From the sequence record PQ850602.1: 40,176 bases of DNA; one strand, 5' to 3'. The stretch comes from Escherichia phage EmilieLinder_Bas103. The notes under the pieces were generated by a model, which saw nothing but the letters and a program-made list of their open reading frames with translations, was not told the DNA's origin and did not search any database. A program made the translations under genes and the position numbers. Numbering within the stretch: position 1 is the first letter of the stretch; each line of letters opens with the position of its first letter. Shown here in pieces: positions 10,123-20,383 of the stretch.

Positions 10123-10143
10123 CCAAACATGGAGATAAACATT

Positions 10144-11205
10144 ATGATGAACATTAAGACCAGCCCATTTAAAGCCGTGTCTTTCGTAGAGTCTGCCATT
10201 AAGAAAGCTCTGGATAACGCTGGGTATCTTATTGCTGACATTAAGTACGATGGTGTGCGTGGTAACATCTGCGTAGACAATACTGCTAACTGCTGCTGGC
10301 TCTCTCGTGTGTCTAAAACGATTCCGGCACTGGAGCACTTAAACGGATTCGATGTTCGCTGGAAGCGTCTGCTGAACGATGACCGTTGCTTCTACAAAGA
10401 TGGCTTTATGCTAGATGGTGAACTCATGGTCAAGGGCGTAGACTTTAACACAGGGTCTGGCCTACTGCGCACCAAGTGGCTCAACAAGAATAACTTTGAG
10501 TTCGACGTTGGCGGTGTACCTCCGCTCAAGGGGTCCAAGGTTGAGTTCGCGTTGGACACCAAACGTCTGAGTGTCAAACTGTACGCTATCCTCCCTCTGC
10601 ACATCGTGGAGTCTGGGGAAGACTATGATGTCATGACGTTGCTCATGCAGGAACACGTTAAGAACATGCTGCCTCTGCTACAGGAATACTTCCCTGAAAT
10701 CGAATGGCAAGCGGCTGAATCTTACGAGGTCTACGATATGGTAGAACTACAGCAACTGTATGAGAAGAAGCGTGAAGAAGGCCATGAGGGTCTCATTGTG
10801 AAAGACCCGATGTGCATCTATAAGCGAGGCAAGAAGTCCGGCTGGTGGAAAATGAAGCCTGAGAACGAGGCTGATGGTGTTATCCAAGGTCTTGTATGGG
10901 GTACGAAAGGTCTGGCTAACGAAGGAAAAGTGATTGGCTTTGAGGTGCTTCTTGAGAGTGGTCGTGTAGTAAACGCCACAAACATCTCTCGCGCCTTAAT
11001 GGACGAGTTCACGGCTAAGGTTAAACAGACCATTAGCTTCCGTGAGGACTTTGAGGACTTCGGGGCCGAACCCGAAGACACCAACCCATACCACGGGTGG
11101 CAGTGCCAGATTAGCTACATGGAGGAAACACCTGATGGCTCTCTGCGTCACCCATCGTTCGTAATGTTCCGTGGTACCGAGGATAACCCTAAAGAGAAAA
11201 TGTAA
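10144..11205 (+). CDS. 1.3: ATP-dependent DNA ligase (gp1.3)
   Basis: 353-aa ORF from MMNIKTSPFKAV...; adenylation lysine motif DIKYDGVRG; matches T7 ligase; ORF track offers upstream ATG 10129. Confidence 0.93.
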   Translation: MMNIKTSPFKAVSFVESAIKKALDNAGYLIADIKYDGVRGNICVDNTANCCWLSRVSKTIPALEHLNGFDVRWKRLLNDDRCFYKDGFMLDGELMVKGVDFNTGSGLLRTKWLNKNNFEFDVGGVPPLKGSKVEFALDTKRLSVKLYAILPLHIVESGEDYDVMTLLMQEHVKNMLPLLQEYFPEIEWQAAESYEVYDMVELQQLYEKKREEGHEGLIVKDPMCIYKRGKKSGWWKMKPENEADGVIQGLVWGTKGLANEGKVIGFEVLLESGRVVNATNISRALMDEFTAKVKQTISFREDFEDFGAEPEDTNPYHGWQCQISYMEETPDGSLRHPSFVMFRGTEDNPKEKM

Positions 11206-11209
11206 TCAC

Positions 11210-11243
11210 ACTGGCTCACCTTCGGGTGGGCCTTTCTGCGTTT
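11210..11243 (+). terminator. Early transcription terminator TE (intrinsic, host RNAP)
   Basis: GC-rich hairpin GGCTCACC-TTCG-GGTGGGCC followed by TTTCTGCGTTT; identical in form to T7 TE. Confidence 0.85.
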
Positions 11244-11258
11244 ATAAGGAGACACTTT

Positions 11259-11414
11259 ATGTTTAAGAAGGTAGGTAAATTCCTTGTGGCTTGGGCAGCT
11301 ATCCTTACGTTTGCATATCTTCTGGCGGTATACCCTCAAGCAGCACTTGTAGTAGTGGGCGCTTGTTGTCTAGCGGCAGCGTGTGCTTGCGTGTGGTGCT
11401 TCGTCAATTGCTAA
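11259..11414 (+). CDS. 1.4: gp1.4-like small hydrophobic protein
   Basis: 51-aa ORF MFKKVGKFLVAWAAILTFAYLLAVYPQ... with RBS aaggag; matches T7 gp1.4. Confidence 0.75.
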   Translation: MFKKVGKFLVAWAAILTFAYLLAVYPQAALVVVGACCLAAACACVWCFVNC

Positions 11415-11434
11415 TACGACTCACTAAAGGAGGT
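11412..11434 (+). promoter_or_regulatory. T7 RNAP promoter phi1.5
   Basis: TAATACGACTCACTAAAGGAGGT. Confidence 0.85.
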
Positions 11435-11441
11435 ACACACC

Positions 11442-11534
11442 ATGATATACTTAATGCCATTACTCATTGTCATCTTAGGATGCCTTGCGCTTCACTATAC
11501 TGACGATGATGATATGCCAGATGGTCACGCTTGA
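11442..11534 (+). CDS. 1.5: gp1.5-like mini-protein (30 aa): hydrophobic N-terminus plus acidic tail
   Basis: MIYLMPLLIVILGCLALHYTDDDDMPDGHA; RBS within phi1.5 (aaggagg); matches T7 gp1.5. Confidence 0.65.
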   Translation: MIYLMPLLIVILGCLALHYTDDDDMPDGHA

Positions 11535-11557
11535 CGACACCACTAAGGAGATACCTT

Positions 11558-11674
11558 ATGACGTACTTAATGCCACTACTGATGCTATTCTTGGTGTCAT
11601 TACTCATTCTCATCCCTGTATATGCTGTACTGCGTGATGATGACGATGATGACACACAAGATGACCACGCTTAA
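11558..11674 (+). CDS. Second gp1.5-like mini-protein (38 aa), tandem paralog
   Basis: MTYLMPLLMLFLVSLLILIPVYAVLRDDDDDDTQDDHA; RBS taaggag 7 nt upstream; same N-terminal MxYLMPLL and poly-Asp tail as 1.5; not in T7 as I recall. Confidence 0.55.
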   Translation: MTYLMPLLMLFLVSLLILIPVYAVLRDDDDDDTQDDHA

Positions 11675-11694
11675 TACGACTCACTAAAGGAGGT
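11672..11694 (+). promoter_or_regulatory. T7 RNAP promoter phi1.6
   Basis: TAATACGACTCACTAAAGGAGGT overlapping the stop of the preceding mini-ORF. Confidence 0.85.
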
Positions 11695-11699
11695 ACTAT

Positions 11700-11960
11700 A
11701 TGTTTCGACTTCATTACAACAAAAGTCTTGAGAATTTCACGGTTCGCCGTGTTGACCGTTCAATCGTATGTGCGAGCGAGCGCCGAGCTAAGTTACCTCT
11801 TATTGGTAACACAGTTCCTTTGGCACCGAGCGTCCACATCATTATCACCCGTGGTGACTTTGAGAAAGCAATAGACAAGAAACGTCCGGTTCTTAGTGTG
11901 GCAGTGACCCGCTTCCCGTTCGTCCGTCTGTTACTCAAACGAATCAAGGAGGTGTTCTGA
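11700..11960 (+). CDS. 1.6: gp1.6-like protein
   Basis: 86-aa [34 protein letters not shown]...; matches T7 gp1.6. Confidence 0.85.
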
Positions 11961-17648: not shown

Positions 17649-19607
17649 ATGATCGTTTCTGACATCGAAGCTAACGCCCTCTTAGAGAGCGTCACTAAGT
17701 TCCACTGCGGGGTTATCTACGACTACTCCACCGCTGAGTACGTAAGCTACCGTCCGAGTGACTTCGGTGCGTATCTGGATGCGCTGGAAGCCGAGGTTGC
17801 ACGAGGCGGTCTTATTGTGTTCCACAACGGTCACAAGTATGACGTGCCTGCATTGACCAAACTGGCAAAGTTGCAATTGAACCGAGAGTTCCACCTTCCT
17901 CGTGAGAACTGTATTGACACCCTTGTGCTGTCACGCTTGATTCACTCTAACCTGAAAGACACCGATATTGGTCTCCTGCGTTCCGGTAAGTTGCCGGGGA
18001 ACCGCTTTGGGTCTCACGCTTTGGAGGCGTGGGGTTATCGCTTAGGCGAAATGAAGGGTGAATACAAGGACGACTTTAAGCGTATGCTTGAAGAGCAAGG
18101 TGAAGAATACATTGATGGAATGGAGTGGTGGAACTTCAACGAAGAGATGATGGCCTATAACGTTCAGGACGTTGTGGTCACTAAAACTCTCCTTGAGAAG
18201 CTACTCTCTGACAAACATTACTTCCCTCCTGAGATTGACTTTACGGACGTAGGATACACTACGTTCTGGTCAGAATCCCTTGAGGCCGTTGACGTTGAAC
18301 ATCGTGCTGCATGGCTGCTCGCTAAGCAAGAGCGCAATGGGTTCCCGTTTGACACGAAAGCAATCGAAGAGTTGTACGTAGAGTTAGCTGCTCGCCGCTC
18401 TGAGTTGCTCCGTAAATTGACCGAAACGTTCGGCTCGTGGTATCAGCCTAAAGGTGGCACCGAAATGTTCTGCCATCCGAGGACTGGTAAGCCATTGCCT
18501 AAATACCCTCGCATTAAGATACCTAAAGTTGGTGGTATCTTTAAGAAGCCTAAGAACAAGGCACAGCGAGAAGGCCGTGAGCCTTGCGAACTGGACACCC
18601 GCGAGTACGTTGCTGGTGCTCCTTATACGCCAGTTGAGCACGTAGTGTTTAACCCATCGTCTCGTGACCACATTCAGAAGAAACTCCAAGAGGCTGGGTG
18701 GGTCCCCACGAAGTACACCGATAATGGTGCGCCTGTGGTGGACGATGAGGTACTCGAAGGAGTACGTGTAGATGACCCTGAGAAGCAAGCTGCCATCGAC
18801 CTCATTAAAGAGTACCTGATGATTCAGAAGCGAATCGGACAGTCTGCTGAGGGAGACAAGGCGTGGCTTCGTTACGTTGCTGAGGACGGTAAGATTCATG
18901 GTTCTGTTAATCCCAACGGCGCTGTTACTGGGCGCGCTACTCACGCTTTCCCTAACCTCGCACAAGTACCCGGTGTCCGTTCTCCTTATGGTGATAAGTG
19001 CCGCGCTGCTTTTGGCGCTGAACATCACCTAGACGGTATTACTGGTAAGCCTTGGGTTCAGGCTGGCATCGACGCATCCGGTCTGGAGCTACGCTGCTTG
19101 GCCCACTTCATGGCTCGCTTTGATAACGGTGAGTACGCTAGAGAGATTCTTCATGGCGACATCCACACTAAAAACCAGCTAGCTGCTGAATTACCTACCC
19201 GTGATAACGCAAAGACGTTCATCTATGGGTTCCTCTATGGTGCTGGCGATGAGAAGATTGGGCAGATTGTTGGTGCTGGTAAAGAGCGCGGTAAGGAACT
19301 CAAGAAGAAATTCCTTGAGAACACCCCCGCGATTGCAGCACTCCGCGAGTCTATCCAACAGACGCTTGTCGAGTCCTCTCAGTGGGTAGCTGGTGAGCAA
19401 CAAGTCAAGTGGAAACGCCGCTGGATTAAAGGTCTGGATGGTCGTAAGGTACACGTTCGTAGTCCTCACGCTGCCTTGAATACACTACTGCAATCTGCTG
19501 GTGCTCTTATCTGCAAACTGTGGATTATCAAGACCGAAGAGATGCTAGTAGAGAAAGGCTTGAAGCATGGCTGGGATGGGGACTTTGCGTACATGGCATG
19601 GGTGCAT
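17649..19607 (+). CDS. 5: DNA polymerase (gp5), exon 1 (codons 1-653, ends ...FAYMAWVH)
   Basis: Near-identical to T7 DNA polymerase residues 1-653 incl. exonuclease motifs and thioredoxin-binding region; reading frame is broken after His653 (motif C HDE) by an inserted element. Confidence 0.93.
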
Positions 19608-20208
19608 AAACTATCTCATTGTGCACATTAAATCTGGTGAACTCGGTGAAACCCTTCTGGGGCAATACCGAGCCAAGCCATAGGGAGGATATATGAGAGG
19701 CAAGAAGTTAATCCTTGCGGCCACAGAGAGTGGTTGTATCATCCCTACGTCGCACAAACTTAATGCTGATGGTTATTTCCGAAAGAAGACGAACGGTGTC
19801 CTAGAGATGTATCACAGGACAGTCTGGAAGGAACACTACGGAGATATACCAGAAGGGTATGAAGTAGACCACAAGTGTAGGAACAGGGCGTGCTGTAACG
19901 TAGAGCACCTCCGGTTACTAGAAGGTTCTGAGCATACAGTCAAGACAAACAGGGAACGCTACGCTGACCGTAAAGAGTCCGCGAAGGAATACTGGTTGGA
20001 GACTGGATGTACAGGGACACACTTAGGTGAGAAGTTTGGTGTAACGTTCTCTGCCGCTTGTAAGTGGATTAGAGAGTGGAAGGCGTAGAGACTATCCGAA
20101 AGGAGTAGGGCCGAGGGTGAGATTCCCTCGTTACCCGAAGCGCCAGACAGTCAACTCAAAGGCTGATGATATAGTCCGACACTCCTAGTAATGGGAGAAT
20201 ACAGAAAG
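19608..20208 (+). mobile_element. Group I intron (601 nt) in DNA polymerase gene 5, carrying an HNH homing endonuclease ORF
   Basis: Insertion exactly between codons His653 and Asp654 of an otherwise T7-colinear gp5; 5' exon ends in U, intron ends in G; intron GUGCAC (19621-19626) can pair with exon GUGCAU to form P1; 601 nt restores frame. Confidence 0.85.
19693..20088 (+). CDS. Intron-encoded HNH homing endonuclease (131 aa)
   Basis: Strong RBS gggagg 6 nt upstream; HNH motif EVDHKCRNRACCNVEHLRLLEGSEHTVKTN; C-terminal helix-turn-helix-like region. Confidence 0.85.
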   Translation: MRGKKLILAATESGCIIPTSHKLNADGYFRKKTNGVLEMYHRTVWKEHYGDIPEGYEVDHKCRNRACCNVEHLRLLEGSEHTVKTNRERYADRKESAKEYWLETGCTGTHLGEKFGVTFSAACKWIREWKA

Positions 20209-20364
20209 GATGAGATTCAAGTAGGTTGCCGTACCGAAGAGATTGCTCAGGTGGTCATTGATACCGCACAAGAAGCAATGCGCTGGGTTGGAGACCACTG
20301 GAACTTCCGGTGTCTTCTGGATACCGAAGGTAAGATTGGTCCTAACTGGGCCGTATGTCACTGA
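20209..20364 (+). CDS. 5: DNA polymerase (gp5), exon 2 (codons 654-704, DEIQVGCRTEEIAQVV...GPNWAVCH)
   Basis: Matches T7 gp5 C-terminus; joins exon 1 in frame once 19608-20208 is removed, giving 704 aa as in T7. Confidence 0.9.
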   Translation, partial: DEIQVGCRTEEIAQVVIDTAQEAMRWVGDHWNFRCLLDTEGKIGPNWAVCH

Positions 20365-20383
20365 TACTATAGGAGAAATTATT

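Follow-up and report, generated by a model that had tools for sequence, protein, structure and literature searches.

A probable diverged second copy of the phi1.5-promoter/gene 1.5 cassette in a small lineage of T7-like phages

Escherichia phage EmilieLinder_Bas103 (PQ850602.1; the whole stretch of 40,176 nt that was analyzed is called the window below) carries two adjacent mini-genes, ORF A and ORF B, where T7 has the single gene 1.5. ORF A is the ortholog of the T7 gene, and ORF B is a diverged paralog of this known, uncharacterised mini-gene, with an altered architecture. Taken as a whole, the explanation that we consider probable is that ORF B represents a second, diverged copy of the cassette of phi1.5 promoter and gene 1.5, confined to one small lineage and arranged in tandem with the orthologous ORF A. 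The identity and origin of the locus as a promoter-gene cassette copy are well supported by sequence comparison, and a mode of action for the two products is suggested by analogy with gene 1.5 of T7 and T3.

The window is a T7-like genome of the Teseptimavirus type. The 12 kb around the locus are 98.2% identical to AnnaIndermaur_Bas104 and 97.8% identical to JeanTinguely (Bas64), both also Teseptimavirus. The region contains the following features:

10129-11205: ligase gene, upstream of the mini-gene region.
11259..11414, plus strand: gene 1.4 homolog, 51 aa, hydrophobic (phrog_17655, E 1.4e-30; Pfam DUF5464, E 2.5e-25).
11412..11434, plus strand: phage-RNAP promoter phi1.5, TAATACGACTCACTAAAGGAGGT, a base-for-base match to annotated T7 phi1.5 (34.3 bits).
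11442..11534, plus strand: ORF A, ortholog of T7 gene 1.5, 30 aa, MIYLMPLLIVILGCLALHYTDDDDMPDGHA (phrog_12128, E 5.9e-19, full length).
11532..11551, plus strand: decayed promoter between the copies, TGACGACACCACTAAGGAGA, from the alignment to T7 phi1.6 / TAATACGACTCACTAAAGGAGA.
11558..11674, plus strand: ORF B, 38 aa, MTYLMPLLMLFLVSLLILIPVYAVLRDDDDDDTQDDHA, an extra gene relative to T7.
11558..11581, plus strand: ORF B codons 1-8, MTYLMPLL, the extra octapeptide repeat (20/24 nt identical to A codons 1-8).
11582..11674, plus strand: ORF B codons 9-38 and stop, a full-length diverged gene 1.5 homolog, MLFLVSLLILIPVYAVLRDDDDDDTQDDHA (ungapped alignment to A).
11672..11694, plus strand: phage-RNAP promoter phi1.6, aligned with annotated T7 phi1.6 (34.3 bits).
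11700..11960, plus strand: gene 1.6 homolog, 86 aa, downstream boundary of the cassette (phrog_1777, E 4.1e-41; gene 1.6 in T7).

Both ORFs lie between phi1.5 (11412) and phi1.6 (11672), in clear synteny with the annotated T7 record, and are separated by a spacer of 23 nt. The gene 1.4 homolog is found at the position of T7 gene 1.4 and belongs to the upstream context, outside the duplicated unit. Each mini-gene has its own Shine-Dalgarno site: AGGAGG (11428-11433), which is included in the 3' end of phi1.5, ends 8 nt ahead of the ATG of ORF A, and AAGGAG (11545-11550), which is contained in the decayed promoter, ends 7 nt ahead of the ATG of ORF B. The decayed promoter also overlaps the TGA stop of ORF A, and phi1.6 opens with the TAA that serves as the stop codon of ORF B. 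Runs of Asp codons are present at 11502-11513 in ORF A and at 11636-11653 in ORF B. An earlier note on this DNA had reported two adjacent mini-ORFs of 30 and 38 aa preceded by ribosome-binding sites, and its coordinates, lengths and peptide sequences were all exact.

T7 has one gene 1.5, not two. The earlier note had given T7 a single gene 1.5 between phi1.5 and phi1.6, and the annotated T7 genome (NC_001604) indeed has one, with a product of 29 aa (MMYLMPLLIVIVGCLALHCSDDDMPDGHA). A 611-bp query from the window could be aligned with T7 over 468 bp, in two pieces, and the approximately 143 extra bases correspond to ORF B with its leader. ORF A differs from T7 gp1.5 at five aligned positions and by one extra Asp; position, promoter and leader are alike, identifying it as the ortholog. 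ORF B is missing from T7. The family profile phrog_12128, a PHROG of unknown function, matches copy A (see the feature list). Copy B goes unrecognised by this family HMM, with no match at E <= 1 and unrelated PHROGs of unknown function as its best matches (2.6e-4 to 9e-4), and Pfam and NCBIfam returned no family for either copy.

In spite of this, the two copies are clearly related at the DNA level. Local alignment of the A and B coding sequences gave a score of 47, compared with 17.0 +/- 3.1 (maximum 33) for 2000 codon shuffles, none of which reached the observed value. For the ungapped pairing of A codons 1-18 with B codons 9-26, 35 of 54 nt were identical, and 0 of 20,000 codon shuffles did as well. 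The best register aligns all of A, without gaps, to B from the internal Met9 onwards (offset 8), with identity of 14/30 amino acids and 62/90 nt, versus 27-54 of the 90 nt for the remaining registers. This bears on the shared N-terminus that the earlier note had described: the octapeptide is present at the start of both peptides, but N-to-N is not the best register, as the whole of A corresponds to B residues 9-38.

The gapless alignment from Met9 indicates that ORF B consists of a complete 30-codon homolog preceded by an in-frame repeat of its first 8 codons. The first 8 codons of A differ from B codons 1-8 at 4 positions and share 19/24 nt with B codons 9-16, and the two octapeptide repeats within B share 15/24 nt. 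The differences from A (4 + 5) thus sum to the 9 between the B repeats, as expected from independent divergence from an A-like ancestor. In the first repeat of B the amino-acid sequence was retained, and in the second four or five of the 8 residues were altered. Homology between the copies extends to the leader and to the stop/promoter junction. For the extra ORF, homology to gene 1.5 thus takes in both ends and the leader, and its description as a diverged tandem duplication, already given in the earlier note, stands. The description fits an event in place as well as the import of an allele.

The duplicated unit comprises more than the coding sequence. Phages with one copy (T7, KKE5P, WX1, AV103 and several IMG/VR contigs) have a phi1.6 whose first triplet doubles as the TAA stop of gene 1.5. 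The window sequence that follows ORF A, TGACGACACCACTAAGGAGATACC, can be aligned to a phi1.6-type promoter, with indels and substitutions in the core. Together, the spacer alignment and the stop/promoter junction of the single-copy phages point to a unit made of promoter, leader and gene, and the unit boundaries fall at promoter starts.

The middle promoter is dead, judging by its sequence. On a position weight matrix built from 16 promoter-like sites of the window, real promoter sites score 29-40 bits, and the best score in 11500-11580, around the A-B spacer, was -18.3 to -18.6 bits. The spacer fails to match the 23-nt consensus for T7-RNA-polymerase promoters, particularly in the -12 to -5 core. 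Its decayed form is identical in kind in 7/7 two-copy genomes. Due to this decay, ORF B would have no promoter of its own, a difference from T7 gene 1.5, and would be transcribed from phi1.5 or further upstream. Decay of the middle promoter also means that the homology able to delete the copy again is gone. Scans for sigma-70 promoters and intrinsic terminators in 11100-11800 found nothing above chance.

A plausible route to this arrangement starts from the single-copy phages, in which phi1.5 and phi1.6, two near-identical phage promoters, bound the cassette. If these repeats of ~21-25 bp recombined unequally, either within one phage or between co-infecting relatives, the order promoter-1.5-promoter-1.5-promoter-1.6 would result. 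The later changes can be read from the sequences: the middle promoter decayed, ORF B gained its in-frame repeat of 8 codons, and the B protein diverged faster than A.

Promoter repeats also flank the present pair. Positions 11412-11436 and 11672-11696 form a perfect direct repeat of 25 nt (100% identity, spacing 260 nt), with both mini-genes in between, and recombination between these repeats could delete the pair. The phi1.6 sequence of the window, JeanTinguely, Bas104 and SYGE1 (...GGAGGTAC) equals phi1.5 over 25 nt; T7, PDP351P2 and JacobBurckhardt have ...GGAGACAC.

The two-gene arrangement is not unique to the window genome. Using blastn with copy B as the query, we found it in 5 of 50,697 phage records (JeanTinguely, PDP351P2, Bas104, SYGE1 and JacobBurckhardt). 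All five have phi1.5, A, the decayed promoter, B and phi1.6, and copy B is 94-99% identical (DNA) across these relatives. Searched exhaustively with phmmer, 1.84 billion protein representatives yielded a single cluster with two Logan members, one from a full-length contig of 39.7 kb with the same two-gene layout and the other from a 2.2-kb contig that encodes a B-type peptide. Exact-pattern scans for copy B found none in IMG/VR and none in the JGI metagenome contigs. Scanning IMG/VR for the motif of the shared N-terminus returned 18 loci, none of them two-copy and about half of them unrelated chance ORFs. Four GenBank records (Bas64, Bas65, Bas104 and SYGE1) list the mini-ORFs as 'hypothetical protein' and nothing more, and the PDP351P2 record is unannotated. 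A limited literature search found no description of the duplication; gp1.5 is unmentioned in the BASEL paper, and the PhageMaP T7 essentiality preprint and the T7 holin-deletion paper contain nothing on gene 1.5.

The layout of Bas64, Bas65, Bas104, SYGE1 and PDP351P2 is like that of the window, with variation in Asp-run lengths and in the upstream context (gene 1.4, HNH endonuclease or nothing). The slot between ligase and phi1.5 is occupied by gene 1.4 in the window, Bas104 and T7. In Bas64 and Bas65 it holds a putative HNH homing endonuclease gene that overlaps the 3' end of the ligase gene (positions 131-601 of the locus extracted from JeanTinguely, L003, and 57-548 of that from JacobBurckhardt, L005). 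In SYGE1, PDP351P2 and KKE5P, phi1.5 follows TE with nothing in between. Three different upstream contexts among two-copy genomes mark the region as a recombination hot spot.

Presence of copy B is not predicted by similarity of the flanks. AV103, Yanou and 13a outrank JacobBurckhardt, described as a close relative of T7 in the BASEL paper, in 12-kb similarity to the window, yet they are without copy B (for AV103, the single copy was confirmed by direct reading of the sequence). Such patchiness, together with the mosaic character of the hot-spot region and its three upstream contexts, would be expected if ORF B were a divergent gene 1.5 allele from an unsampled T7-like lineage, recombined at the promoter repeats during co-infection, so that A and B would be pseudo-paralogs. 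We regard this as possible, if rather doubtful. The leader and first 8 codons of B also agree with it, as they share 89% identity with the 5' end of phi1.5-1.5 in phage KKE5P and resemble the KKE5P type of phi1.5 leader (GGAGATAC[AC]CTTATG), not the phi1.5 leader of the window itself. However, no genome with a B-type gene as its sole gene 1.5 was found in the 50,697 phage records, IMG/VR, the JGI contigs or the 1.84 billion protein representatives, and the same pattern would be expected from an old duplication in place if recombination between promoters then removed the copy repeatedly.

The degree of divergence between A and B is a further point in favour of import. All selection estimates are based on only ~25 synonymous and 89 non-synonymous sites. 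For A versus B(9-38), we obtained pS 0.44, pN 0.28, a dS of about 0.66 and a dN/dS of about 0.5. For A versus its orthologs at similar dS, the values were pS 0.35-0.51, pN 0.08 and dN/dS 0.10-0.17. With pS 0.44, the A/B split is not recent; its age is approximately that of the splits between Teseptimavirus species. The A-B distance is comparable to that between A and gene 1.5 of a Yersinia phage (dS 0.85) and much larger than the distances between B copies (pS <= 0.19), as expected for an imported allele. At the protein level, evolution was faster in B than in A.

Within its lineage, copy B has changed mostly at silent sites. The six B copies compared among themselves differ by pS up to 0.19 and pN at most 0.04, and JacobBurckhardt B is separated from JeanTinguely/Bas104 B by 3 synonymous and 0 non-synonymous changes. 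Over all known variants, the helix core of B (codons 9-25) has a single replacement. The Shine-Dalgarno sites of both ORFs are conserved, and both ORFs are open in 6/7 genomes. The exception is SYGE1, where a CAA->TAA change shortens B to 33 aa. Other variants are L7P in the B copy of PDP351P2, which also has a D->G change in the tail, and an interrupted Asp run, DDDYDG, in the Logan B variants. We take the SYGE1 stop, PDP351P2 L7P and the Logan DDDYDG together to mean that constraint is weak, on the tail at least. Overall, the comparisons suggest weak purifying selection on the B copies, tighter on the helix than on the tail. Substitutions of this kind would be expected if B is a translated peptide, as predicted, in which the helix is constrained and the acidic tail only loosely so.

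The same variants would be accounted for if ORF B were a functionless, slowly decaying remnant of the duplication, with a reading frame that is open just because it is short and young within the clade. The very narrow distribution, the premature stop in SYGE1, L7P in PDP351P2, the broken Asp run in Logan, the loss of B's own promoter and the A-B dN/dS of about 0.5 (versus 0.1-0.17 for A orthologs) would all be in line with such decay. Nevertheless, we consider it unlikely, because the Shine-Dalgarno site and start codon of B are kept in 7/7 genomes, indels are in frame (6 nt in Bas104 B; 3 nt in JeanTinguely A and JacobBurckhardt A), and hardly any replacement is seen in the helix core while silent sites change. 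Moreover, the B frame is open for at least 33 codons, at pS up to 0.19, in seven independent isolates or contigs, whose origins include Switzerland and China, and the N-terminal octapeptide of B was retained as amino acids despite 4/24 nt differing from A.

Two further kinds of variation were observed. The Asp runs are GAT/GAC triplet repeats that vary in length among close relatives (3 or 4 in A, 6 or 8 in B), which is consistent with replication slippage. Both mini-genes start with ATGATG (Met-Met) in every relative examined, including Bas64, Bas65, Bas104, SYGE1 and PDP351P2. In the window the second ATG was lost independently in the two copies, giving ATGATA (Ile) in A (11442-11447) and ATGACG (Thr) in B (11558-11563). 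This parallel loss may reflect a change affecting start-site choice, or it may be a coincidence.

Architecture rather than sequence is conserved across genera. The uncharged segment is 17 residues long in A, T7 gp1.5 and T3 gp1.5. In A (net charge of the peptide -5) it is followed by HYT-DDDD-MPDGHA, and in T3 gp1.5 (25 aa, MWLILFAIVATLGLMVADDNIWPDC) by DDNIWPDC. A fits the common build of about 17 uncharged residues plus a DD(D)-x-[MW]-P-D tail. In B, the repeat of 8 codons extends the uncharged segment from 17 to 25 residues (mean Kyte-Doolittle 2.35; net charge of the peptide -7), an Asp run follows, and TQDDHA takes the place of MPDGHA. With T7/T3 gene 1.5, copy B has in common the N-terminal octapeptide, the hydrophobic segment with an Asp run, the ...D-H-A terminus and a stop codon that lies inside the next promoter, and it is homologous over the full length of A. 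It differs from the T7 and T3 proteins in being 8 residues longer through the internal repeat (25 versus 17 uncharged residues), in having 6-8 rather than 3-4 Asp, and in lacking the M/W-P-D motif that these two proteins share.

The longer segment of B may span a membrane. AlphaFold2, run on the single B sequence, predicted a helix spanning residues 4-29, with a disordered tail (mean pLDDT 79; 85-90 in the first 20). A helix of this length reaches the ~20 residues required for a bilayer span, whereas A, with 17 uncharged residues, is borderline and short for a membrane span.

We favour the following picture of expression and function. A and B would share a single class II transcript, started at phi1.5 and at phage promoters further upstream, and each mini-gene would be translated from its own Shine-Dalgarno site. 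The products would be helical membrane peptides, anchored at the N-terminus and ending in a short, disordered tail rich in Asp. By analogy with T7 and T3, A and B may reside in the inner membrane and perturb or bind a host or phage factor in mid-infection, thereby affecting growth or host physiology and also, whether directly or not, DNA metabolism. B might be a sub- or neo-functionalised version, in which the octapeptide is kept, the helix spans the membrane over its full width and the longer tail is without M/W-P-D.

Bacteria and phages have small single-pass membrane peptides that modulate larger proteins or the membrane, for example MgtS, AcrZ, KdpF and type I toxins. As a purely functional analogy, A and B would resemble them in size (30-40 aa) and in the combination of one hydrophobic helix with a short charged tail; PHROG, Pfam and NCBIfam profiles detected no sequence relationship. 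The tails of type I toxins are usually basic, whereas those of A and B are strongly acidic. A reading of A and B as type I toxins or holin-like membrane toxins is disfavoured by these acidic tails (-5 and -7) and by a minus strand that gave no promoter signal above chance (one sigma-70-like match versus a shuffle mean of 1.0). Mimicry of gp2.5 and gp4 was also considered. The acidic C-termini of these proteins bind T7 DNA polymerase, and their terminal aromatic residue is essential. They end in ...DGDF and ...DTDF, the mini-proteins in ...DGHA and ...DDHA, and mimicry therefore found no support.

To our knowledge, T7 gene 1.5 has no assigned function. Two published phenotypes, both from the single-copy gene 1.5 of T7/T3, indicate that its product is expressed and physiologically active. 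T7 Gp1.5 expressed alone inhibits growth of E. coli in minimal medium and is toxic only there; the growth defect is relieved by stringent-like RNAP alleles, and no interaction of Gp1.5 with RelA, SpoT or RpoZ was seen (PMC13483052). Among ligase-deleted phages, knock-out mutations of gene 1.5 arose repeatedly, with parallel events in T7 and both T3 lines (PMC2696425), and this recurrence implies that the T7/T3 peptide is made and has a fitness effect. The knock-outs in the ligase context could in part be due to local transcriptional effects.

The protein phenotype also bears on whether the peptides matter at all. Each mini-gene might instead form a hairpin in the class II transcripts that affects stability, processing or translation, with the peptides being incidental. 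We give this hardly any credence. The fold of copy B beats shuffles (z -2.26, 2/200), but the folds of copy A, T7, T3, KKE5P and WX1 are no better than shuffles (z -0.80 to +0.78), the fold of the whole region has z -1.64, no Rfam match was found in the whole window, substitutions are patterned as in coding sequence, and the phenotype of T7 Gp1.5 is obtained with the expressed protein (PMC13483052). Since GAU and GAC, for Asp, are the reverse complements of AUC and GUC, for Ile and Val, every gene 1.5 mRNA examined can pair codons of the hydrophobic segment with codons of the tail; in the window this pairing would cover 11464-11513 (A) and 11589-11662 (B). Because the pairing is a consequence of codon complementarity and no fold but that of copy B is better than shuffles, the hairpin was rejected as a general explanation.

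A more specific functional proposal goes beyond the preferred reading of B as a diverged cassette copy. A and B could be a differentiated pair, in which B spans the membrane, carries a longer acidic tail, and either partners A via the shared MMYLMPLL or counteracts a costly activity of A, and in which GAT/GAC slippage tunes tail length. A's activity would then be the one that is lost in ligase-less T7/T3 and that is toxic under growth dependent on the stringent response. We consider this proposal quite improbable. If true, the pair would be a natural experiment on the role of gp1.5.

Independently of the proposal, a diverged paralog reveals which features were kept (the N-terminal octapeptide, the hydrophobic helix, the Asp run and the ...DHA end) and which are free to vary (helix length, the MPD motif and Asp number). 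The locus thereby offers ready-made natural variants for structure-function work on gp1.5. It also illustrates cleanly how phage promoters can serve as repeats for recombination, by which gene cassettes are duplicated or shuffled, with promoter decay stabilising the new copy. The wider biological importance is likely to be small, and the duplication as such would not surprise a specialist.

Elsewhere in the window, gene 5 (DNA polymerase) is interrupted in 19600-20365. A gathering-threshold Rfam scan found no intron model there, and nothing in the whole window. The first ORF (17649-19631) ends where T7 gp5 continues with HDEIQVGCRT, and the remaining gene 5 exon (DEIQVGCRTEEIAQVV...NWAVCH*) can be read from about 20212. 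Between the two parts, an ORF at 19693-20088 encodes an HNH_3 endonuclease (Pfam, E 1.5e-17). Group I introns with homing endonucleases have been reported in DNA polymerase genes of T7-like phages, and the interruption looks like such an element.
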